Program-made: the position numbers and the translations under genes
Shown: positions 1,921 to 15,090 of the stretch, piece by piece
How the letters are laid out: every line of letters starts with the position of its first letter
Position numbering within the stretch: the stretch's first letter is position 1
The notes under the pieces: generated by a model
Told to the model about the DNA's origin: nothing
The model's database searches: none
What the model saw: the letters and a program-made list of their open reading frames with translations, nothing else
Source: Acidimicrobiales bacterium
Lineage (GTDB): Bacteria > Actinomycetota > Acidimicrobiia > Acidimicrobiales > SHLQ01
Direction of reading: 5' to 3'
Assembly: GCA_013002375.1 (NCBI GenBank)
Contig: JABDJW010000268.1
Coordinates: 1-15,090 of the forward strand
Length of the DNA: 15,090 nt

Positions 1921-3162
1921 TCAGGCCCCGGTCAGCAGTCGGTGGGCCGCAGCAGCAGCCTCGGCGCCCGACCGAAGAGCGCCATTGATCGATGCGTCGT
2001 GGCGATGGTCGCCGGCGACGATCGCACCCGAGGGCGCTGTGGTGATACCGAGCGCGGTCTGGCCCGGCGGCTGGCGCGGCTGGGCCCGATCGACGCGGTC
2101 GACCCGCAAGAGATCCCACCCCTCGACCATCGGGCCGTACCAGTCTCGGAGCTGGGCGCGGAGTTGATCAGCGATGTCGGGGGCCGAGCGAGCCGGCGTC
2201 GCGACCGACGACGCCACGACGAGCTGACGGCCCGTCGGCGCATACATCGGACTGACCGCCGCCAGATTGGCCACCGAGTTCACCGGACCGGATCCGGTGC
2301 TGTTCAGCACGAGGGTCGACCCGATGGGCACCGGTTGGTTCGACGAGAACCAACAGCTGGTCACGCCGTTCCACCCTCGATCGTCGACACCGGCCAGCTC
2401 GGCGGCCTCGGTCATGCCGGTGGCCACGATGACGGCGCCGGCGTCGACCCGTTCGCCACCGGCCAGCAGGATTCCGTTGCCGTCGACCTTGGCGACCGGT
2501 GTCTGCAGGTGGACCGTGTCGTCGGGCAACCGAGCCAGCAGGTGTTCGCCGATCTGGCCCATCCCGCCGGCGGGAACCACGGCATCGCCGATGGCCAACA
2601 TCCGGAACACGAAGTCGAGCACTCGGCTGGATCCCGACAAGGTGGGATCGAGGGTGATGCCGGCAAACAACGGCTGGAAGAAGCGCTCGATCATGGTCGA
2701 CGAGAAGCCCAGGTCCTCGAGTCGGGCCTGGGCCGTCTGCTCCGGCGCCGACCAGAGTTGGGCGAGGGATTGCCTGGTGACCCGGCGGCGATACCGCAGG
2801 ATGCGCAGCTTGTCGGTCAACGAGCCGACCGGCGCCCGAACGGTGGGCACCAGGTCGGCTGGACGCCGAAAGGGGTCGCCGACGCGGTGGAACGACCCAT
2901 CGATACGCAGCTCGACTCCGGGCTGAAACGGCCGCAGATCGAGGACGTCGTACCGCAACAGCTGCTGAGCCTCCGGGTAGGCATCGAGCAGGATCTGGAA
3001 GCCTCGATCGAGCCGGTAGCCGTCGACGACATCGGTCCGCACTCGCCCACCGGGCCCGTCGGCCCGCTCGAACACGACGACGGATCGACCGGCTTCGCAA
3101 AGCCGAATCGCGGCGGCGAGGCCGGCCAGGCCGGCACCGACGATGGCGACGTCGGCGGTCAT
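1921..3162 (-). CDS. FAD-dependent oxidoreductase of the flavin amine oxidase / protoporphyrinogen-phytoene desaturase-like family
   Basis: True start is probably the ATG at 3162 (MTADVAIVGAGLAGLAAAIRLCEAGRSVVVFERADGPGGR = Rossmann GxGxxG ... E ... GGR dinucleotide fold). The C-terminal ...AIVAGDHRHDASINGALRSGAEAA motif is typical of this family. The ATG overlaps the upstream esterase TGA as ATGA (3159-3162). The listed 522-aa form adds an Arg-rich 5' extension that looks spurious. Confidence 0.75.
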   Translation of the reverse strand: MTADVAIVGAGLAGLAAAIRLCEAGRSVVVFERADGPGGRVRTDVVDGYRLDRGFQILLDAYPEAQQLLRYDVLDLRPFQPGVELRIDGSFHRVGDPFRRPADLVPTVRAPVGSLTDKLRILRYRRRVTRQSLAQLWSAPEQTAQARLEDLGFSSTMIERFFQPLFAGITLDPTLSGSSRVLDFVFRMLAIGDAVVPAGGMGQIGEHLLARLPDDTVHLQTPVAKVDGNGILLAGGERVDAGAVIVATGMTEAAELAGVDDRGWNGVTSCWFSSNQPVPIGSTLVLNSTGSGPVNSVANLAAVSPMYAPTGRQLVVASSVATPARSAPDIADQLRAQLRDWYGPMVEGWDLLRVDRVDRAQPRQPPGQTALGITTAPSGAIVAGDHRHDASINGALRSGAEAAAAAHRLLTGA

Positions 3163-4652
3163 CGCACGCCCGACCAACAATCGATGGTGTCGATCACCGG
3201 GTCGGGGCGCCATGTGGTCGTCGTGTCGAAATCGATCAGCGAACGTTGCTCGGGGCTGTAGGCCAGCCATTCGGGTCCGCCATCGAAGCCGGGCCGGCCG
3301 TGGCGCAGGAACGAGATCCACGTCGCATGCATGATGTCGGCGACGGGCTGCGGATCGGGGCCCGGGCCGATGAAGAGGTCGACGCCCGGCTGATGGAGGT
3401 TGTCGAACACGAAGGGAATCTCCAGGGCATGGCATGCGCCGAGCGCGCCCTCGAAGGCCCGTGATTGCCAGCTGAACCGGTACATCCAAGTATCGGCGCC
3501 GTGCGCGGCTCGAGCGTCGGCCATGCGGACCGCCGGCACGCCGAACATGGCGTCACCACCGATCGCCACCGCCAGGTCGCCGGCCGACGTGGCCCGACCG
3601 GCCTCCCGGTACCGGTCGATCGCGGCGGCCGGATCGGGATGGGTGCGAGCCACGAACCCTTCGAGTCGATCGTCGGTGGTCTGCTGGGTGCCCCACAGAC
3701 GGGTCTCGTCGGCATTGGTGCCCATCAGCACCGGTTTGTCGCAACCGACGCCGGCCGCGATAGCGTCGATCGGCCGGCGCGGTAGGACGACGCCATCGAC
3801 CACCGGGTAGAACGGCGAGTTCATCAAGCCCAGCTCGGCCGGGGAACGGCCGTAGAGCTCCTCCTGGGCGTCGAGCAGCCGCTCGGCGCCGAGCGACCGC
3901 AGGCCCTCGACCGAGCCGGACGCCACGCCGGCGGCCTCGAACAACCAGCGGGCCACCCCTTGGCCTTGTTCGGCGTCGTGGACGGCGTGCGCGGCCCCGC
4001 TCTGGAGGATCGCCTGGGCGAAAAGGGGCTGGGCGGCCGGCAGCGAGAGCAACGTACCGACGCTGAACGCCCCGGCCGATTCGCCGGCGATCGTGACCCG
4101 CTCGGGATCTCCCCCAAAGCTCGCGATGTTGTCCTGCACCCACTGGAGCGCGGCCAGCTGATCCAGGATGCCCACCACCCCGGAGCCGGCCAGCTCATCG
4201 TCGAGATGGTCGAGGTAGGTGAACCCGAAGGCGCCCAGCCGATAGTTGATCGACACCACGACGACGTCGCCCTGCTCGGCGAAACGGGCGCCGTTGTACC
4301 AGGGGATCGCGCCCATGCCGTGGCGGAAGTCGCCGCCATGGATCCACACCATGACCGGCCGAGCGCCATCGACCGCCGGCGTCTGCACGTTGAGCGAGAG
4401 GCACTCGGCTTCATCCCAGGGCAGAGCAGCGGCGCTGGTGAGCCCGTCGCCGGGGCGCTGAGGCGCCCCCTTGGTGAAGCGGGTGGCGTCGCGGGGCTCG
4501 GACCAGGCTTCGACCGGTTGCGGCGGCCCAAACCGGTTGTGGCCGACGGGAGGGGCAGCATATGGAATGCCGGCGAACGAGAGCACGCCGTCGCGTTCGC
4601 GCCCGAAAACCGGACCGGACGTTGTGGTTGCGACTGGACTCGAGTTCACCAT
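3159..4652 (-). CDS. Carboxylesterase/lipase type B family (para-nitrobenzyl-esterase-like)
   Basis: Nucleophile elbow VTIAGESAGAFSV (G-E-S-A-G). N-terminus MVNSSPVATTTSGPVFGRE...FAGIPYAAPPVG matches the family's N-terminal block. I prefer the ATG at 4652 over the listed GTG at 4742, which would overlap the upstream gene. The stop TGA overlaps the next ATG. Confidence 0.8.
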   Translation of the reverse strand: MVNSSPVATTTSGPVFGRERDGVLSFAGIPYAAPPVGHNRFGPPQPVEAWSEPRDATRFTKGAPQRPGDGLTSAAALPWDEAECLSLNVQTPAVDGARPVMVWIHGGDFRHGMGAIPWYNGARFAEQGDVVVVSINYRLGAFGFTYLDHLDDELAGSGVVGILDQLAALQWVQDNIASFGGDPERVTIAGESAGAFSVGTLLSLPAAQPLFAQAILQSGAAHAVHDAEQGQGVARWLFEAAGVASGSVEGLRSLGAERLLDAQEELYGRSPAELGLMNSPFYPVVDGVVLPRRPIDAIAAGVGCDKPVLMGTNADETRLWGTQQTTDDRLEGFVARTHPDPAAAIDRYREAGRATSAGDLAVAIGGDAMFGVPAVRMADARAAHGADTWMYRFSWQSRAFEGALGACHALEIPFVFDNLHQPGVDLFIGPGPDPQPVADIMHATWISFLRHGRPGFDGGPEWLAYSPEQRSLIDFDTTTTWRPDPVIDTIDCWSGVR

Positions 4653-4663
4653 GCCCGCGAACG

Positions 4664-5650
4664 CTAGCCGAGCGCGGGCAGAACCGAGTCGGCGTACAAC
4701 TGGAGGCTCCTCCAGCCCTCGTCGATCGGCATGCCCCCGCACAGCGGGTGGTGGGTCATGAAGGCGAAGTCACCGGCGCCCTGCAGCTCGTCGATCGCCT
4801 CCTGCGGCGACAGCACCCGATAGATGCCCTCCTCGCGGAGCTCGGCCGGATTGCCGGCCGCCGATTTCACGGCTGATTTGTTCGACGGTGGTTGCCACGC
4901 GGCATAGACCGAAGCCTCGTTGAAGAAATACTGGCCGAGTTCGGCCCAGGCTTGATCCGGGTCTTCGTGAATGAAGTTCAGGGTGGTGTTGGGTGCCGGC
5001 ATGATGCACAGGCCGGTCTTGCCGTTGGCGGCCAGCTCATCGTTGTAGAGGGCTTCGAGATCCGGCAGGTGCGCGGCGGGGAAGAACGGCAACCCGAGTC
5101 GCGCCGCCCGCCTGGCCGATGCCGGGCTGGTGCCGCCGATCAGGAGCTGAGGATGCGGTTTGGAGATCGGGACCGGCGTGACCCGTACCGTTTCACCCTT
5201 GTAGTCGAACGGCTCGCCGGTCCACGCGGCCAACATCACGTCGAGCGCTTCGTCGAGCAGCTTGCCCCGACGCTTCCATTCGCGGTCGAGCAAGTGGTAC
5301 TCCGAAGGTCGGTACCCCAGCCCGGTGATGATCGACAACCGACCACCGCCCGAGAGCAGATCGGCCACCGCGATGTCTTCGGCCAGACGAACCGGATGGT
5401 GTTGCGGCACCAGCAGCGCCGAGATGCTGACGCCGATCCTCTTGGTCCGGGCGAACACCATGCAGGCCATGGCCAAGGGCGAGCAGCTCCAACCGTTCTC
5501 CGCGCCGTGGTGTTCCTCGAGGGTGATGGTCGAGAAGCCGTGTTGCTCGGCGAACTCGGCCATGTCGACAAACGCCTGATAGCGCGCCGACATCTCGATC
5601 GGCTCGAGGCCCGGCTGAATCATGTTGAACCGGGCGATGGACATCACCAT
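4664..5650 (-). CDS. LLM-class (luciferase-like monooxygenase) flavin-dependent oxidoreductase
   Basis: 328 aa with typical LLM blocks: ...TITLEEHHGAENGW..., ...LLVPQHHPVRLAEDIAVADLLSGGRLSIITGLGYRPSEY..., ...KPHPQLLIGGTSPASARRAARLGLPF. Strong SD AAGGGGG sits 8 nt before the ATG at 5650. Stop lies 11 nt before the esterase start. Confidence 0.8.
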   Translation of the reverse strand: MVMSIARFNMIQPGLEPIEMSARYQAFVDMAEFAEQHGFSTITLEEHHGAENGWSCSPLAMACMVFARTKRIGVSISALLVPQHHPVRLAEDIAVADLLSGGGRLSIITGLGYRPSEYHLLDREWKRRGKLLDEALDVMLAAWTGEPFDYKGETVRVTPVPISKPHPQLLIGGTSPASARRAARLGLPFFPAAHLPDLEALYNDELAANGKTGLCIMPAPNTTLNFIHEDPDQAWAELGQYFFNEASVYAAWQPPSNKSAVKSAAGNPAELREEGIYRVLSPQEAIDELQGAGDFAFMTHHPLCGGMPIDEGWRSLQLYADSVLPALG

Positions 5651-5750: not shown

Positions 5751-6953
5751 CTAGCGCTTGGTACCGGAGCAGACGATGCTGGCGTTTTCGCCCAGCGCGG
5801 TCTCGGCGGCGATGACCGCTCCGTCGACCTCGACCGCACAGCTCAATTCTCCGGTGCCCACTCGCCGCACGACCGCGACGTTGATTTCCTGTTCACCCTC
5901 GAAGACATCGATCGTGGTGCGATACGGCAGCCACACGTCGACCGACAGCGGCACGTTGATGCCATCGTCGATGCTGACCTGGGCCAAGCCCTCACCTTCG
6001 ATGACCACCGAACCCCGCTCGAGCTGACGACCCAGCACCTCGGCCGGTCGATCGCTCGTGGGGACACCATCGGAACCACCGCTGTTGGCGATGGCCAGAC
6101 CGCCGACGAAGAGCGCGGCGATGATCGACGCCGCACCGAGCGCCAGGTTCGTCTGCTGCTCGGGCCGCAGGATCGGCAAGCGACGATCGCTGACCTCGAC
6201 CAGGCCGCGAGCCGAGCGGGCGAAATCACCGTGCATCGAGATCGGCCACACCGTCGAGGAGTCGTACAGTGCGCCGTCGAACTTCACCGCCGTGACGGTC
6301 GCCGAACCGAGGTCGGCACCGCGAAGGTCGGCCTTGCGCATATCGGCGCCGGTCAGGTCGGCATCCCCGAAGCGGGCGTCGCGGAGATCGGCTTCTTCGA
6401 AATGCGCCTCTTGCAGGTTTGCTTTGAAGAAGCGCGCGCCCCGGAAGTCAGCTCGAAAGCCGTGCAGATCGAAGCCGTCGATGTTGTCGAAGCGAGCATC
6501 GCGGGCGTCGGATCGGGTCAAGACCGCGTCGGCCATGACCGTGCCGGTGAAATCGGCCTTGCGAAGGTTGGCGTGAGCCAATCGGATCGAGTTCATCTGC
6601 CGGTTGCGCAGGTAGGAACCGTCGAGGTTGGCCGCGGAGAAGTCGCAGGAGTCGAGCGGATTGCCGGTGTTGATCTGCATCTGCAGATCGCGGCGGCGAC
6701 GGGAACTCTCGCCGATGATGAACCCCCAGGTCACGATGGCACCCAACACACCGGCGCCGACCAGGACCAGACCGGCCTGACGGCTGGTCTCCGACGGCGC
6801 CCGGTCGACGACGACCGCGCCGACGCCGACGATGAGCCCGATGGCCAGAATCAAGGGGACCCATACGGCTCGCCGAATGGTGTCTCGCGCGGCCGCCAGG
6901 GACTGCATCAATCGTCCGGCCAGGGCCGCGGTTTGCTTCCGGAACTTCTTCAT
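5751..6953 (-). CDS. Membrane-anchored pentapeptide-repeat protein with three TM helices and a ~110-aa C-terminal extracytoplasmic domain of unknown type
   Basis: Tandem A(D/N)LxxA pentapeptide repeats: ANLRKADFTGTVMADAVLTRSDARDARFDNIDGFDLHGFRADFRGARFFKANLQEAHFEEADLRDARFGDADLTGADMRKADLRGADLGSA. Hydrophobic helices are AVWVPLILAIGLIVGVGAVVV, AGLVLVGAGVLGAIVTWGFIIG and LALGAASIIAALFVGGLAIA. Start set at the ATG at 6953 (MKKFRKQ...). The listed GTG at 7004 would overlap the divergent neighbour. The antisense 439-aa ORF is D/R/G-rich junk. Confidence 0.65.
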   Translation of the reverse strand: MKKFRKQTAALAGRLMQSLAAARDTIRRAVWVPLILAIGLIVGVGAVVVDRAPSETSRQAGLVLVGAGVLGAIVTWGFIIGESSRRRRDLQMQINTGNPLDSCDFSAANLDGSYLRNRQMNSIRLAHANLRKADFTGTVMADAVLTRSDARDARFDNIDGFDLHGFRADFRGARFFKANLQEAHFEEADLRDARFGDADLTGADMRKADLRGADLGSATVTAVKFDGALYDSSTVWPISMHGDFARSARGLVEVSDRRLPILRPEQQTNLALGAASIIAALFVGGLAIANSGGSDGVPTSDRPAEVLGRQLERGSVVIEGEGLAQVSIDDGINVPLSVDVWLPYRTTIDVFEGEQEINVAVVRRVGTGELSCAVEVDGAVIAAETALGENASIVCSGTKR

Positions 6954-7018: not shown

Positions 7019-7729
7019 ATGATGGCCATGGAGGCTGAGGCCGACCCCGTGCGCCGGGCTCTCGGCATCACCGCCACGGGCCGGCCGGTTCACCCGCGTT
7101 TTCCGTTCGTGCTGTACCACCAGGCCGGCCGAGCCATCGGTGCCGGCGTCACCACCGACATCGCAGTGGCCGTGTACGGCACCGATCCGCGCTTCGGCGT
7201 CGACGCCATCGGCACGCAGCCCGCCGCAGTCGCCACCACCCTGGCCGCGGCCGAGACCGAGCCGACCTTGATCGTGTCGGCCGGGACGGCTGGGGGCTTC
7301 GCCAACCGGGGTGGTGCCATCGGTTCGGTGTATCTGAGCGCCGCGCCGGTCGTGTTCCACGATCGTCGTATCCCGCTGGGTGCCTTCGAGCCATATGGCG
7401 TTGGCTCGTACCCGACCATCGGCACCGACAAGATCGCCGAAGCAGCGGGCGTCGAGCCGGGCGTCGTCACGACCGGCAACTCCCTCGACGCGCCTGCAGT
7501 CGACCGGGCGACGATGGAGTCAGCCGGCGCCCATGCCAAGGACATGGAAGCGGCGGCCGTGGCCTGGGTGGCCGAATCGCTCGGCGTCGACTTCGCCGCG
7601 GTGAAGGCGATCACCGACTTGATCGACACGCCCGAACCCACCGCCGACCAGTTCGAGCGGAACCTCACCCACGCGACCGAGCGCCTGGCCGAGATGATCC
7701 CGGCCGTGCTGCGCGCCTTGTTGCGCTGA
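7019..7729 (+). CDS. PNP_UDP_1 family nucleosidase (5'-methylthioadenosine/S-adenosylhomocysteine nucleosidase- or futalosine-hydrolase-like)
   Basis: MMAMEAEADP (compare MtnN ...GAMEEE), VSAGTAGG (compare NTGSAGG), DMEAAAVAWVA (compare EMEATAIA), KAITDLID (compare RAISDxAD). Start placed at ATG 7019; the listed GTG 6992 is the alternative. Confidence 0.65.
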   Translation: MMAMEAEADPVRRALGITATGRPVHPRFPFVLYHQAGRAIGAGVTTDIAVAVYGTDPRFGVDAIGTQPAAVATTLAAAETEPTLIVSAGTAGGFANRGGAIGSVYLSAAPVVFHDRRIPLGAFEPYGVGSYPTIGTDKIAEAAGVEPGVVTTGNSLDAPAVDRATMESAGAHAKDMEAAAVAWVAESLGVDFAAVKAITDLIDTPEPTADQFERNLTHATERLAEMIPAVLRALLR

Positions 7730-7731
7730 CG

Positions 7732-8538
7732 CTATTCGCGGGCGCGGCTCACCGCCGCGGTGACGGCCCGTCGCACCGGGCCGGGCAGGCTGGCGTTCAC
7801 GCTTCGAAGCACCCGGTTCCGTTTGCCGGAAACCACGATGGCCTTGCCTGCCTCGGCGCCGACCAGACCCGCTTCTGCGACCTGCTCGGCCGTTTGCCAG
7901 ATCCAGTCGGGAACGTCGTTGATGTCGGAGCCGGCGCGCTCCTGGAACTCGGTGCGGGTCATGCCCGGCATCAGACAGGAGACGACGACACCGGAATCGG
8001 CCAGATCGACCGCAAGGGACTGCGAAAAGCTGTTCACGAAGGCCTTGGTGGCGTTGTAGGTCGCCGAGCCCGGTCCGACGAGTTCGGCCGCCACCGACGA
8101 CACGTTCAAGACGGTGCCGCCGCCACGGTCGCGCATCGCCTGGGCCGCGGCATGGCACAGGCGATGCAGGGCGACGACGTTCACGGCGACGACGGTGGCC
8201 TCGCCCGCGTAGTCGAGATCGGCAAACGGACCGTCGAACCCGATTCCCGCGTTGTTGACCAGCAGGTCGATCGGACGCTCGACGGCCGACACTCGGGCCG
8301 CGACACGGTCGAGGTCGGCAGGGTCGGCCAGGTCGGCCACCAGCACCTCGACCTGCACATCGTGGGCGGTCATGACGTCGACCGCCAGGGCATCAAGTCG
8401 TTCTTGATCCCGCGCCACGACCACCAGGTGCGTGGAGCGCTCGGCCAGCTGCTGGGCCATGGCCAGCCCGATACCCGAGGACGCCCCGGTGACGAGCGCC
8501 CGAGTCCATGTCGACTTCGGATGCAGCGTTGCGGTCAT
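7732..8538 (-). CDS. SDR-family short-chain dehydrogenase/reductase
   Basis: TGASSGIGLAMA (TGxxxGxG), NNAG, and a catalytic S...YNATK (YxxxK). 268 aa. Convergent with the nucleosidase gene, with a 2-nt gap between stops. Confidence 0.85.
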   Translation of the reverse strand: MTATLHPKSTWTRALVTGASSGIGLAMAQQLAERSTHLVVVARDQERLDALAVDVMTAHDVQVEVLVADLADPADLDRVAARVSAVERPIDLLVNNAGIGFDGPFADLDYAGEATVVAVNVVALHRLCHAAAQAMRDRGGGTVLNVSSVAAELVGPGSATYNATKAFVNSFSQSLAVDLADSGVVVSCLMPGMTRTEFQERAGSDINDVPDWIWQTAEQVAEAGLVGAEAGKAIVVSGKRNRVLRSVNASLPGPVRRAVTAAVSRARE

Positions 8539-9533: not shown

Positions 9534-9605
9534 ACCAAAGGCCGTCGCGGGGCATCTCACCCAGTGGAAACCCCTCCACGACTGGCTGGCCCGAGCTGGC
9601 GTCCT

Positions 9606-9640
9606 GCCGGTTCGAAGCCGGTCGGTTGCCGGGGGTTTTG
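9606..9640 (+). terminator. Possible intrinsic terminator between the convergent rnz and thioesterase genes
   Basis: Two short GC hairpins (GCCGG-ttcgaag-CCGGT and CCGG-tcggttg-CCGG) followed by GGGGGTTTTG. The stems are only 4-5 bp, so this is weak. Confidence 0.25.
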
Positions 9641-9655
9641 AGGACTGCGGCTCAG

Positions 9656-11365: not shown

Positions 11366-11644
11366 GTGGAAGCGGGCAATACCCTGAGAATCGTGGATGG
11401 ATATGCCGGACCGGCTCGGGCCCTGGTCGACGGACGTGATGTCGGCCAGTGGCGGGTGGAACTCGAGCCATTGGCCGACGACCGCGACGAGCGCTCCTGG
11501 GGCGGCCGAGTCGCGAACAGCGACTACGTCCTGTGGGGCCTGGCCGGTCGGAGACTCGAGCTCGTCCTCCCGAGCGGCCACCGGGCCGCGTGCGTGGTAC
11601 GCCCGACCGGCGAAATCATCGGCCTCGGACCCGCCCCGTTCTGA
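11366..11644 (+). CDS. Hypothetical small protein (92 aa, GTG start), no recognisable family
   Basis: Most third codon positions are G/C, as expected for coding DNA here. It fills the gap between the divergent hydrolase start and hairpin repeat copy A, whose stem begins 10 nt after its TGA. Confidence 0.35.
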   Translation: MEAGNTLRIVDGYAGPARALVDGRDVGQWRVELEPLADDRDERSWGGRVANSDYVLWGLAGRRLELVLPSGHRAACVVRPTGEIIGLGPAPF

Positions 11645-11701
11645 CCCAACCCGATCTCTGATGCCTGAACCGCACTATGTACGGGTAGAGCGTCAGAGAT
11701 C
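11645..11701. repeat. Copy A of a ~56-nt conserved two-tier hairpin repeat
   Basis: cccaacccgATCTCTGATGCctgaaCCGCACtatGTACGGgtagaGCGTCAGAGATcg. An 11-12-bp outer stem with one G-U pair encloses an inner CCGCAC/GTACGG stem. It is about 88 % identical to the copy at 14186-14243. Confidence 0.7.
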
Positions 11702-11715
11702 GCGCTGTAATCCGC

Positions 11716-11744
11716 TTGACCTAGAGCCCATTAACAGCTACTAT
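11716..11744 (+). promoter_or_regulatory. Near-consensus sigma-A-type promoter driving the PadR-NfeD-flotillin operon, predicted leaderless
   Basis: -35 TTGACC (11716-11721), 17-nt spacer, -10 TACTAT (11739-11744). The A of the ATG at 11752 lies 8 nt downstream, so the transcript would begin at or next to the start codon. The region is unusually AT-rich for this window. Confidence 0.55.
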
Positions 11745-11761: not shown

Positions 11762-12156
11762 GCAATGCACCAGAGCCGAACGCTCTGACCACGTCGAAAC
11801 ATCACGCCCAGATCATGAAGGGCGTGCTCGACATGTGTTTGCTGGCCCGAATCGCCGAGGAACCGAGCTACGGCTACGAACTCGTCACCACCCTCAACGA
11901 CGGCGGTTTGCCCGTCGCCGGCGAGGGCAGCATCTACCCGGTGCTCAAACGTCTGAAACAACAGGGGTTGATCGAGGGTTACCTCGTCGACTCCCCCTCC
12001 GGACCGGCCCGCAAGTACTACCGAGCCACTCCTGAAGGGGATCTGGTGTTGGCCGACTGGAAAACCGATTGGACCAACGTGGCCAACGGTGTGAACGCCA
12101 TGTTGGCCACCCGGAACAAACCGACATCGAAAGGCAAGAAAGGAACCGCACGATGA
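11752..12156 (+). CDS. PadR-family transcriptional regulator
   Basis: ...MKGVLDMCLLARIAEEPSYGYELVTTLNDGG...EGSIYPVLKRLKQQGLIEGYLVDSPSGPARKYYRATPEG is the PadR winged-helix signature. The alternative internal start at 11815 (MKGVLD) removes a 21-aa lower-GC3 N-terminal extension. The stop overlaps the next ATG as ATGA. Confidence 0.8.
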   Translation: MVAGNAPEPNALTTSKHHAQIMKGVLDMCLLARIAEEPSYGYELVTTLNDGGLPVAGEGSIYPVLKRLKQQGLIEGYLVDSPSGPARKYYRATPEGDLVLADWKTDWTNVANGVNAMLATRNKPTSKGKKGTAR

Positions 12157-12797
12157 TCTGGATCTACCTCTCTGCCCTCATCTTCGGTGGCGTGTTCACG
12201 ATCCCGATGGTCCTCGGCGGCCTCGACTTCGATGGCGACGTCGATTTCGACTTCGACGCCGATGGTGATCTCGCCCTCGACACCGGCGATTTCGATGCCG
12301 GCGGCGACATCGACGTCAGTGAAACCAACACCGGCGGCATCGATACCGGCGGTGCGATCAGCGACTTCGTCGGCACGCTGCTGTCGTTCCGCTCGATCGT
12401 CTTCGCCCTCACGTTCTTCGGACTGACCGGCATCGTGTTCAACCTGTTCGATTACAGCGAACCGTTCCCGCTGCTGATGGCGGCCGGCCTTGGCTTCGTG
12501 GCTGCGGCGCTCAACGCGCAACTCTTTAGCATGCTGGGCCGCGGTGAATCCGACAGCCGACTGTCGAACCGCGACATCGAAGGCAAGCCGGCAACCGTCG
12601 TGCTGCCGCTCAACGAAGACCGCAAGGGGCGCATTCGTGTGCCCATCCGTGGCGAGACGATCTACATGGTCGCTCTGCCGTGGGACAAGGCAAACAGGCC
12701 CTATGCCGTCGGCGAGTCCGTCGTCGTCGTAGAAATTGAGGACGGGACTGCATTGGTGGCGCCGCTGCCAGGTCTCGAACTCGGGGAGGAAAGCTAA
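12153..12797 (+). CDS. NfeD-like (YuaF-type) membrane protein: three TM helices, an acidic D/G-rich loop and a C-terminal OB-fold beta-barrel domain
   Basis: True start is ATG 12153 (MIWIYLSALIFGGVFTIPMVLGG), not the upstream ORF start at 12069. TM2 and TM3 are TLLSFRSIVFALTFFGLTGIVF and FPLLMAAGLGFVAAALNAQLF. The C-terminus GKPATVVLPLNEDRKGRIRVPIRGETIYMVALPWDKANRPYAVGESVVVVEIEDGTALV looks like the NfeD short-form beta-barrel. It sits immediately upstream of a flotillin gene, as yuaF-floT does in Bacillus. Confidence 0.7.
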   Translation: MIWIYLSALIFGGVFTIPMVLGGLDFDGDVDFDFDADGDLALDTGDFDAGGDIDVSETNTGGIDTGGAISDFVGTLLSFRSIVFALTFFGLTGIVFNLFDYSEPFPLLMAAGLGFVAAALNAQLFSMLGRGESDSRLSNRDIEGKPATVVLPLNEDRKGRIRVPIRGETIYMVALPWDKANRPYAVGESVVVVEIEDGTALVAPLPGLELGEES

Positions 12798-12799
12798 CC

Positions 12800-14179
12800 A
12801 TGGAAGCAATCTTGATTGTCGCCGTCGTCGTGGCGATCATGTTCGTCGTCGTTCTGACCGCGGTGAAGAGCCTGATCATCATCTGCCCCCCGAACAAGGT
12901 GGCCGTGATCTCTGGTCGCCAAGTGAAGTTGGGCGACGGGTCCAAACGGGGCTACCGCGTCCTGCGCGGCGGCTTCACGGTTCGAATTCCGATGATCGAG
13001 AAGGTCGACTACATGGATCTCAACACGATCCCGATCGATGTCTCGGTATCCAACGCCTACTCGAAAGGTGCGATTCCCCTCGACGTGCAGGGCGTCGCCA
13101 ACATCAAGGTGTCGAGCCGCGATGGCGTTCTGGCCAACTCGGTCGAGCGCTTTCTCGGTCGTCCGCCGGAGTACATCCAGCAGATCGCCAAGGAAAACCT
13201 CGAAGCGAACCTACGCGGTGTGCTCTCGACGCTGACCCCCGAAGAGGTCAACGAGGATCGGCTGAAGTTTGCCCAGACCCTCATCGACGAGGCCGACGAC
13301 GACATTCGTACCCTCGGGCTCGAGCTCGACGTGCTGAAGATTCAGAACGTCACCGACCAGGTCGGCTACCTCGAAGCCGTCGGTCGGCGCCGCACGGCGC
13401 AGGTCATCAAGGAAGCCCGCGAGAGCGAGGCGCTGCAGTCCGCCGAAGCCGAGGAGGCCGAGGCCCAGAGCCGCAAGCGGGCCGAGCTGGCCAAGGTGCA
13501 GTCAAATCTGGCCATCGCCGAGGAGACCAACAAGCTGCGGGTACGGCAAGCCGAACTCGACGCCGAAGCCAACGCCCGGGAGGAAGAGGCTGGGGTGGCC
13601 GGTGAACGAGCCAAGGCCGCCGCGGAACAGCTGCTCGAAGACGAGCGCATCAAGCTCCAGAAACGGCGCCTCGAAGCCAACGTGGTTGCTCCGGCCCGGG
13701 CCAAGCGCGAAGCGCTCGAACTCGAAGCCAAGGGCAACGCGGCCCACATCATCGAGGACGGCAACGCCCAGATCGAAGTGTTCCGCCGGATGAGCAACGA
13801 GTATCGCTCGGCCGGTGCGGCCGCCCAAGAGGTCATGGTCATGCAGATGCTGCCCGACCTGGTGGACCAAATCGTGGGCACGGTCAACAACATGGACATC
13901 GGCAAGGTCACCGTCATCGACAACAGTGGCGGGGCCGGCGGCGGGGCTCTCCCCGGTGTCGCCAGCCAAATGCCCGCCGCGGTCATCGCCATCACCGAGC
14001 AGATCGAGGCGGCCACCGGGGTGAACATCCTGCACGCGCTGTCGAAGCCGTCGGCCATCGACGATGATGAGATCGTCGATGCCCAGGCCAAGATCGCCGC
14101 GGAGGCCTCAAACGATGCCGGCGACGGCGCGAGCGAGCCCAGCTCATCACTACCCCCACCGCCCCCCGCGGCCAACTAG
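12800..14179 (+). CDS. Flotillin-like SPFH/band-7 domain protein (FloT/YuaG-like)
   Basis: N-terminal TM AILIVAVVVAIMFVVVLTAV, then an SPFH block (VISGRQVKLGDGSKRGYRVLRGGFTVRIPMIEKVDYMDLNTIPIDV...QGVANIKV...), a long EA-rich coiled coil (AEAEEAEAQSRKRAELAKVQ...) and a Pro-rich tail. Strong SD GGGGAGGAAAG before the ATG. 459 aa. Confidence 0.85.
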   Translation: MEAILIVAVVVAIMFVVVLTAVKSLIIICPPNKVAVISGRQVKLGDGSKRGYRVLRGGFTVRIPMIEKVDYMDLNTIPIDVSVSNAYSKGAIPLDVQGVANIKVSSRDGVLANSVERFLGRPPEYIQQIAKENLEANLRGVLSTLTPEEVNEDRLKFAQTLIDEADDDIRTLGLELDVLKIQNVTDQVGYLEAVGRRRTAQVIKEARESEALQSAEAEEAEAQSRKRAELAKVQSNLAIAEETNKLRVRQAELDAEANAREEEAGVAGERAKAAAEQLLEDERIKLQKRRLEANVVAPARAKREALELEAKGNAAHIIEDGNAQIEVFRRMSNEYRSAGAAAQEVMVMQMLPDLVDQIVGTVNNMDIGKVTVIDNSGGAGGGALPGVASQMPAAVIAITEQIEAATGVNILHALSKPSAIDDDEIVDAQAKIAAEASNDAGDGASEPSSSLPPPPPAAN

Positions 14180-14185
14180 CCGAGG

Positions 14186-14243
14186 ACCCACCCAATCTCT
14201 GATGCCTGAACCGCACTATGTGCGGGTAAGGCATCAGAGATTC
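14186..14243. repeat. Copy B of the conserved hairpin repeat, placed as a bidirectional terminator between the convergent flotillin and P450 genes
   Basis: acccacccaATCTCTGATGCCtgaaCCGCACtatGTGCGGgtaaGGCATCAGAGATt. A perfect 12-13-bp outer stem and a perfect 6-bp inner stem, followed by a GTTTT run. It fills the gap between the flotillin TAG (14179) and the P450 stop (14242-14244). Confidence 0.7.
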
Positions 14244-15090
14244 AGGTTTTCGGCGCGGTCCAGGTGGCCGGAAGGGATTGGGGCTTGCGGAAGACGAGTC
14301 CGCTCGGGGCAGATCCGGCTGGGTCGGACAGCGTGAGATCCGGTAGCCGCCGCATGGCCCCTTCGAGCGCGAGGCGGGTCTCCAGCCGGGCCAGATGAAG
14401 GCCGAGACACACGTGCGGCCCCTGGGCAAAGGTGAGGTGGCGCCCGAGGTTGTCACGGTGAGGATCGAACCGATCGGGGTCCGGGAACGTGGCCGGGTCA
14501 CGGTTGGCCGCAGTGAGCGAAACCGACACGAGGTCGCCTGCTCTGATCGCGACGCCATCGAGCACGGTGTCGGTCGTCGCATAGCGATCGACGACGGCGG
14601 CGGCCGGCTCGATCCGCAGTGCTTCCTCCACGACACGCTCGAGCAACGTTACCCCTCCCCCATCCAGCTCGGCCCGAACCGATTCGGTCAGCTCGGGGTC
14701 GCGGAGCAGGTGAAACAACGCGGTCGCGATCGTTCCCTCGGTGGTCTCGATACCGCCGAACAGCAGCACGCCGACATTGGCCACCAACTCCTCGTCACTC
14801 AGCGTGCCCGATGCCGCCACGGCTCCGAGCAACGTCGGATCGGCCGGCGTGGGGCGGGCCGCACCGACATGGGCTCGCAGCGCGGCGAAGGCGTCGGCCA
14901 CCTCGGGCCCAACCGGTTCGCCGGCGGTGACCGCAGTGATGCCGGCCAAGAACGTGTCGTACCAGCCCAACATGGCATCGACCGATTCGACACCGAGCCC
15001 CAGCACGGACGCCATCGTGCGACCGGCCACCGGTGCGGCGAAGTCGCGCCGGAGGTCGGCCGCTTCGGTGGCGAGGAGCCCGTCGAGCAC
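14242..15090 (-). CDS. Cytochrome P450 (C-terminal ~280 aa; N-terminus beyond the right window edge)
   Basis: I-helix LLFGGIETTEG ((A/G)GxETT), K-helix EEALRIEP (ExxR), heme-binding loop FAQGPHVCLGLHLARLE (FxxGxHxCxG). Confidence 0.85.
   Translation of the reverse strand: MLDGLLATEAADLRRDFAAPVAGRTMASVLGLGVESVDAMLGWYDTFLAGITAVTAGEPVGPEVADAFAALRAHVGAARPTPADPTLLGAVAASGTLSDEELVANVGVLLFGGIETTEGTIATALFHLLRDPELTESVRAELDGGGVTLLERVVEEALRIEPAAAVVDRYATTDTVLDGVAIRAGDLVSVSLTAANRDPATFPDPDRFDPHRDNLGRHLTFAQGPHVCLGLHLARLETRLALEGAMRRLPDLTLSDPAGSAPSGLVFRKPQSLPATWTAPKT

Follow-up and report, generated by a model that had tools for sequence, protein, structure and literature searches.

Two closely similar hairpins stand at the two ends of a single operon in the genome of an uncultured Acidimicrobiales bacterium, each just past a stop codon. 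Are they ordinary terminators, members of a repeat family, or the trace of a recombination event? The question arises from one 15,090-bp contig of a metagenome-assembled genome (MAG); this contig is the whole stretch that was analysed (the window), and copy counting within the genome covers exactly this contig. The initial annotation had proposed a dispersed repeat, REP- or MITE-like or recognised by a protein or an RNA. Here we describe the two copies and their gene setting, compare the locus with its relatives and with known elements, and weigh the possible explanations.

Two copies of one element

The copies lie where the initial annotation had placed them. A repeat search of the window aligns positions 11646-11700 with 14187-14241 (55 nt, 89% identity), and self-BLAST of the window pairs the copies over 52 nt at 90.4% identity (E 1.3e-11). 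Reading of the sequence extends the repeat units, about 58 nt each and in direct orientation, to 11643-11700 (copy A, + strand, 58 nt) and 14185-14241 (copy B, + strand, 57 nt). This pair is the sole long non-coding repeat family that the repeat search found in the window. Half-site searches found no third copy in the 15,090 bp, and the 47-mer of copy B gave 0 chance matches in 200 shuffles.

Each unit has two parts: a C-rich 5' extension and a 47-nt two-tier hairpin. The extension is GACCCAACCCG in copy A (11 nt, 11643-11653) and GACCCACCCA in copy B (10 nt, 14185-14194), with one indel between them. The repeat is asymmetric: the copies share sequence 5' of the hairpin, and none 3' of it.

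The copy B hairpin (14195-14241) is perfect, and reads ATCTCTGATGCC / TGAA / CCGCAC-TAT-GTGCGG / GTAA / GGCATCAGAGAT. It consists of a 12-bp outer stem (arms 14195-14206 and 14230-14241); a 4x4 internal loop (TGAA, 14207-14210; GTAA, 14226-14229); a 6-bp inner stem (14211-14216 and 14220-14225); and a TAT loop (14217-14219). All stem positions are paired, and the stem can be extended by one A-T pair (14194/14242) into the stop codon of the neighbouring P450 gene. The copy A hairpin (11654-11700, + strand) follows the same plan: outer 5' arm, 11654-11665; internal loop TGAA, 11666-11669; inner stem, 5' side, 11670-11675; loop TAT, 11676-11678; inner stem, 3' side, GTACGG with one mismatch, 11679-11684; internal loop GTAG, 11685-11688; and outer 3' arm AGCGTCAGAGAT, with one U.G and one C.A, 11689-11700.

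The two hairpins differ at four positions, all of them transitions and all in the 3' half. Within the 23-nt interior 21 positions are identical, one fewer than had been counted, the changes being G to A in the inner stem and A to G in the 3' internal loop. Nor is the drift in copy A purely stem-preserving, as had been claimed: read on the + strand, its three stem differences give one U.G pair and two C.A mismatches (on the - strand, two G.U and one A.C). Compensatory double changes number zero, so the two copies provide no evidence from covariation, and the hairpin structure rests on palindromy and energy instead. Both copies do fold strongly. Copy B in context reaches -46.4 kcal/mol (z = -8.1); copy A reaches -29.0 kcal/mol on the + strand (z = -4.0) and -35.7 kcal/mol on the - strand (z = -5.2).

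Loops, asymmetric 5' flank and stems are all conserved between the copies. The hairpins therefore share an ancestry: they are copies of one element, and did not evolve independently as two terminators.

A transcription unit between two hairpins

The gene order around the pair is: an alpha/beta hydrolase gene (-), orf92 (+), copy A, a promoter, padR/nfeD-like/flotillin (+), copy B, and a cytochrome P450 gene (-). The two copies bracket one complete transcription unit from promoter to 3' end, namely padR/nfeD-like/flotillin.

Copy A lies immediately 3' of orf92 (11366..11644, + strand), and overlaps the last two bases of its stop codon (TGA, 11642-11644). The gene encodes a hypothetical protein of 92 aa with no Pfam match; its G+C by codon position (0.77/0.53/0.78) is typical of coding sequence. 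The padR promoter, TTGACC-17-TACTAT (11716..11744, + strand), begins 15 nt past copy A and is the only sigma-70-like site in the 15-kb window. The padR ATG follows 7 nt past the -10 box, an arrangement of the leaderless type. The operon itself comprises padR, for a PadR-family regulator (NNE74150.1; 11752..12156, + strand); a gene for an nfeD-like membrane protein (12153..12797, + strand), whose start overlaps the padR stop (ATGA, 12153-12156), suggesting translational coupling; and a flotillin/SPFH gene (12800..14179, + strand), the protein of which is 100% identical to NNE74152.1.

From the flotillin stop codon (TAG, 14177-14179) it is 5 nt to the copy B unit and 15 nt to its hairpin. From the other side, the P450 gene (14242..15090, - strand; the C-terminal part, cut at the contig end) converges on flotillin, and its stop codon (14242-14244, - strand) directly abuts the hairpin end at 14241. 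The placement of the copies after stop codons, with copy B between convergent stops, is thus as first described. Relative to the + strand gene upstream, the two copies point the same way, and each starts 0-5 nt from the stop codon of that gene.

Between the copies the G+C content is about 0.60, against 0.69 elsewhere. This is no sign of foreign DNA: third-position values for the operon genes (0.74, 0.80, and 0.84) match those of the neighbours (0.78-0.85). The drop is confined to codon positions 1 and 2, and therefore reflects protein composition. Pfam matches of the window genes include no recombinase, integrase, or transposase.

Elsewhere in the window two - strand genes, for an amine oxidase (1921-3489) and a carboxylesterase (3159-4742), have longest ORFs that overlap by about 330 nt; the amine-oxidase domain begins at residue 113, and the true start probably lies further downstream.

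Strong hairpins with few terminator features

Neither copy was called by a scan of the window for canonical terminators, which have a G+C-rich stem with a U-tract immediately after it. The only U-tract-like feature beside either copy is a TTTT run (14247..14250, + strand) that lies 5 nt past hairpin B; copy A has no T run next to its stem. An Rfam scan of the window gave as its sole match a spurious miRNA, which scored 24 bits where the gathering score is 95, and at E<=1 nothing real was found over the window and three other loci discussed below (L003, L012, and L013). The spurious match, to mir-598, comes from positions 12223-12360 inside the nfeD-like gene, where short tandem direct repeats encode an Asp-rich DxDxD sequence.

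Other gene ends in the window look different. Between convergent genes for an MBL-fold protein and an acyl-CoA thioesterase, at about 9569-9641, an unrelated long G+C-rich hairpin is followed by TTTT. It is a terminator of the canonical type, probably a bidirectional one, and its presence indicates that the organism also uses ordinary terminators. At 7729-7732, a PNP-family gene (+) and an SDR gene (-) converge with their ends 2 nt apart, and the gap holds no hairpin.

Relatives keep the operon and change the hairpins

Related loci were traced through flotillin homologues at 75-79% identity. The padR/nfeD-like/flotillin operon is kept across the Acidimicrobiia and, with the same promoter, is present in L003/L004, L005, L006-L008, and L017, where the promoter follows the pattern CTTGAC...TAnnnT...ATGGTA. 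The genes that flank the operon differ in every relative lineage.

At the two sites occupied by the repeat, these relatives have hairpins of other sequence. Immediately upstream of the padR promoter, strong hairpins unrelated to the window element are found in L005 and L003, and L006 has a weak one only. Directly after flotillin, strong hairpins that have T runs, again unrelated, are present in L005, L006, and L017. Since the relatives place unrelated hairpins there, the two repeat sites are generic terminator or insulator positions, whatever the sequence that fills them. This undercuts the earlier argument that conservation of the loop speaks against a terminator. A covariance model built from both copies (R1) found no homologue in about 195 kb of the loci compared, bar contigs that had been preselected by pattern. 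For a comparison with an empty site by way of the neighbouring hydrolase gene, the relatives are too distant: its nearest homologues share 55-57% identity, and on the orf92 side the gene order is not kept.

L003 and L004 contain a hairpin pair of their own, so repeated hairpins do occur in this clade. Their 49-nt repeat, GATTTGTGAACCGAAACAGACGATATTGGTCGCTTT(C/G)GGTTCACAAATC, is unrelated in sequence to the window element. Its two copies (L003:1251-1299 and 2250-2298, equal to L004:5851-5899 and 6850-6898) are 98% identical and lie 999 bp apart, around one DUF559/MTES_1575 nuclease-like gene. The last codons of this gene run into copy 1, which also contains its stop codon; copy 2 falls between divergent genes, 20 nt ahead of the padR -35 box. 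Among eight distinct Acidimicrobiia loci (about 110 kb), intra-locus hairpin repeats were seen only in the window and in L003/L004, each with exactly two adjacent copies. Such pairs may arise locally, through recombination at a hairpin.

The search for further copies

Do other copies exist outside the window? An exact 19-mer from the element, searched against one genome each of 185,579 GTDB species, gave only two chance matches, in Bacteroidota. The 23-mer interior has no match in JGI metagenomes or in IMG/VR; BLASTN of copy B against plasmids and phages gave chance-level partial matches only; and the element translated in its three open frames yielded no ORF candidate among 5.8 billion proteins. 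In the literature the arm sequence turned up only in unrelated primers.

A gapped pattern of the arms alone, ATCTCTGAYGCY-N15-30-RGCRTCAGAGAT, had no match in IMG/VR and found three JGI contigs: L012, L013, and L014. In L014 (GC 0.47) the match is an ordinary T-rich terminator. The hairpins of L012 and L013 have the same 12-14-nt arms, CGATCTCTGAYGCC...GGCRTCAGAGATCG, with different apices and no 5' extension (L012:4700-4753, L012:4779-4828, and L013:3248-3299; arms CGATCTCTGACGCC...GGCGTCAGAGATCG). L012 (GC 0.76) has two such hairpins in tandem downstream of etfA, past the etfA terminator. L013 (GC 0.73) has one, downstream of a small-protein gene (metallopeptidase-like, HExxH) and upstream of a sigma-factor gene; on the strand of the small-protein gene it reads CGATCTCTGACGCCTGAC...GGCGTCAGAGATCGCGG, and it resembles copy A beyond the pattern itself, in its CG flanks and a TGA after the arm (31 bits with model R1). 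At arm position 9, copy B has a U-A pair, copy A has U.G, and L012 and L013 both have C-G.

By a rough estimate, the arm pattern should match about once by chance in random sequence, and more often among real hairpins. The shared arms of L012 and L013 thus hint at a wider family with a conserved stem base, or else are a chance match. (Both contigs also carry perfect or near-perfect palindromes of 51-72 nt at their ends, at L013:1-72, L013:9468-9524, and L012:5698-5748; these probably are assembly artefacts.)

The idea of a repeat element, with which the initial annotation began, therefore stands in part. Shared ancestry, placement at gene ends, and the arms in L012 and L013 favour it; the 19-mer, 23-mer, and translated searches came back empty outside the window.

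Comparison with known elements

The closest likeness is to the TRIT element of Mycobacterium tuberculosis, a palindromic, bidirectional hairpin present in 147 copies that lie narrowly at stop codons (PMC3152330, Gardner et al. 2011). Its sequence conservation has been taken to suggest a protein partner (PMC3152330). The existence of TRIT contradicts the earlier view that elements of this kind are uncommon in high-GC Actinobacteria. Both elements come from Actinobacteria; both are hairpins conserved in sequence and in structure; both are palindromic and hence bidirectional; both keep to a tight window around stop codons, the units described here overlapping or abutting stops on both strands; and both do without a canonical U-tract. 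By the features that define TRIT, the window holds 90% identical palindromic copies that start 0-5 nt from + strand stops, with copy B abutting a - strand stop as well. There are also differences. The 147 TRIT copies are restricted to Mycobacterium, whereas two copies are visible here, in an Acidimicrobiales MAG; and TRIT mostly starts inside the coding end (at about -8), whereas the window element lies at or past the stop. The likeness was drawn from the described structure and placement of TRIT.

REP sequences offer a second comparison. These are 20-40 bp long, with a single stem of 5-13 bp and a GTAG/CGTC tag (PMC3733652, Di Nocera et al. 2013), and the survey reported no families from Actinobacteria (PMC3733652). 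Like REPs and BIMEs, the window element lies outside genes, between gene ends, and is an imperfect palindrome that carries an unpaired, asymmetric flank on one of its sides; REP families are species-specific and comprise tens to thousands of copies per genome, and roles in termination and mRNA stabilisation have been proposed for them too. The window hairpin differs in its size (47 nt, or 57-58 nt with the flank) and in its combination of 12-bp and 6-bp stems. The foot of the stem has no GTAG/CGTC tag, the adjacent bases being ...CCCG/CCCA (5') and CGCG/TCAG (3'); GTAG occurs only within the internal loop of copy A, where copy B has GTAA. Pfam matches of the window genes include no RAYT (Y1 transposase). 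Membership in the tagged REP super-family thus fails on size and on tag.

With intrinsic terminators the element shares a position and a strong hairpin, and ordinary terminators occupy the same sites in relatives. It differs in that no U-tract directly follows the stem; in that the stem base is A/U-rich; and in that it is repeated at 90% identity, unlike independent terminators.

The attC sites of integrons carry the core sites RYYYAAC...GTTRRRY. Here too, structured imperfect palindromes of about 57 nt, in direct repeat, bracket a gene unit, and the two-tier stem, unpaired in its central spacer, is similar in outline to a folded attC. Yet the repeats have no R''/R' core sites, no GTTRRRY at the 3' arm, and no extrahelical bases; the window has no integrase; and the "cassette" comprises three genes together with a promoter of their own. 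The attC reading fails on core sites and integrase. CRISPR and riboswitch readings were rejected on anatomy.

What the hairpins may be

The element is most likely of a known kind, and we see no sign of a new mechanism. The explanation we prefer, at about even chances, is that the copies belong to a lineage-specific, sequence-conserved hairpin of the REP/TRIT kind, located at gene 3' ends, which marks the ends of transcripts and insulates neighbouring genes. Its role in ending or stabilising transcripts is an inference, as are additional copies in the rest of the genome; a dispersed family is plausible.

Such an element would settle in short spacers just past stop codons, and would form the 3' end of the transcript of the gene before it: orf92 for copy A, and for copy B flotillin and, on the opposite strand, P450. 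The two-tier hairpin, with its 12-bp and 6-bp stems, would set the transcript 3' end through pausing or termination by RNA polymerase, through a block to 3'-5' exonuclease, or through both; for copy B, the nearby UUUU might assist. Copy A would shield the padR promoter from orf92 read-through, and copy B would keep the transcripts of flotillin and of the converging P450 gene apart. Of the 3' ends mapped in M. tuberculosis, only 2-4% fall at predicted U-less hairpins and TRITs (bioRxiv 10.1101/2022.06.01.494293). By that figure, exonuclease block or collision-type termination between convergent genes is as likely as true intrinsic termination.

A gene-end family is supported by a repeat far beyond chance with a strong fold on both strands; by the stop-adjacent placement of both copies, in the same orientation to the upstream gene; by the hairpins of other sequence that relatives have at these two sites; by the GC3 of the operon, which equals that of its neighbours; by the arm-sharing hairpins at other gene 3' ends in L012 and L013; by the separate hairpin repeat of L003/L004; and by the precedent of TRIT. 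Several observations count against it. Exactly two adjacent copies at each repeat-bearing locus also fit a local origin. No further copy appeared in species genomes, JGI metagenomes, IMG/VR, proteins, plasmids, or phages. Neither copy has a U-tract right after its stem; covariation is lacking, and copy A has two + strand mismatches; and one copy of the L003 repeat is flanked by divergent genes and hence is not at a 3' end.

A local origin would take a specific form. The pair could be private to this locus, with no wider family, and could be the footprint of a recombination event in which a resident terminator hairpin served as the crossover site by which the padR/nfeD-like/flotillin module came in or was relocated. 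A circular module that brought along a hairpin copy would leave one direct repeat on each side. We rate this, the main rival, as unlikely; it accounts for direct repeats that bracket exactly one autonomous promoter-to-terminator unit, for an operon that is conserved next to different neighbours in every relative examined, and for copies found nowhere else among species genomes, JGI metagenomes, IMG/VR, or proteins. It also accounts for the same geometry in L003/L004, where 98%-identical 49-nt hairpins flank a single gene at a distance of 999 bp, and for the restriction of both repeat-bearing loci to exactly two adjacent copies with no others. However, loss of synteny would be expected anyway at such divergence, and the relatives (best hydrolase homologue 57% identical, synteny lost on the orf92 side) are too distant to reveal an empty site. 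The window offers no recombinase, integrase, or transposase gene to perform the exchange; GC3 of the operon matches that of its flanks; the arms recur at the unrelated loci L012 and L013; and the copies have diverged by about 10%, making any such event an old one. A bolder version holds that hairpins are recombination sites that delimit mobile gene modules in the Acidimicrobiales: hairpin-bounded cassettes with attC-like logic, though with unrelated sequence and enzyme. It fits in that the window operon and the DUF559/MTES_1575 gene of L003/L004 are each bracketed by direct hairpin copies, of different hairpins, and it strikes us as improbable. In a weaker variant, the shared arm CGATCTCTGAYGCC may mark a cross-taxon superfamily of actinobacterial hairpins with a dedicated recognition protein.

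In another reading the repeat would be a miniature transposable element, either MITE-like or the terminal inverted repeats of an IS standing alone as a pair; a transposase encoded elsewhere would read the 12-14-nt arms and the hairpin would be a by-product. The perfect 12-nt inverted repeats of copy B fit this, as does the position of one L003 repeat copy between divergent genes; and the same arms with different interiors, twice in L012 and once in L013, look as if only the termini were recognised. But chance alone would be expected to give a match of that order among the scanned hairpins, the two copies have no consistent target-site duplication (flanks CG/CG in copy A, CA/TC in copy B), and a terminal-repeat model needs neither the conserved asymmetric 5' extension nor the conserved interior. 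At 47-58 nt the element is at or under the lower MITE size limit, and there is no transposase in the window. On balance a transposable origin seems quite unlikely. More improbable still is a double-stranded DNA site for a regulator or recombinase, for example with CCGCAC-TAT-GTGCGG as a PadR operator at both ends of the operon. The inner 6-3-6 palindrome is shaped like an operator, the padR -35 box begins 15 nt past the end of copy A, and the loop sequences are conserved. Yet the PadR orthologues of L003, L005, L006, and L017 retain the winged-helix region and the promoter with no such palindrome near their promoters; the covariance model likewise found no homologue at any of the relatives' loci; and copy B is 2.4 kb away from the promoter, on its downstream side. 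The PadR operator consensus, ATGT-N8-ACAT, is absent as well. The PadR-operator idea was rejected on the strength of the orthologous loci without the palindrome. Finally, chance similarity or an assembly artefact would be scarcely credible: the contig is metagenome-assembled, and other metagenome contigs do carry palindromic artefacts at their ends, but both copies here are internal to the contig, differ from one another at several positions, occupy clean intergenic spacers between intact genes, and match with a pairwise E-value of 1e-11.

Implications

Either a gene-end hairpin family or a recombination footprint would extend known phenomena (REP, TRIT, and terminator hairpins), from the two copies that are visible here. 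If the hairpins are recombination footprints, they would be crossover points at which small operons are shuffled. If instead they represent a gene-end family, it would be, as far as we have found, the first sequence-conserved family of its kind to be described in the Acidimicrobiia, a class known almost only from metagenomes. Such a family would provide a handle on how transcript ends are marked in high-GC, terminator-poor genomes, and a marker of operon boundaries for the annotation of MAGs.
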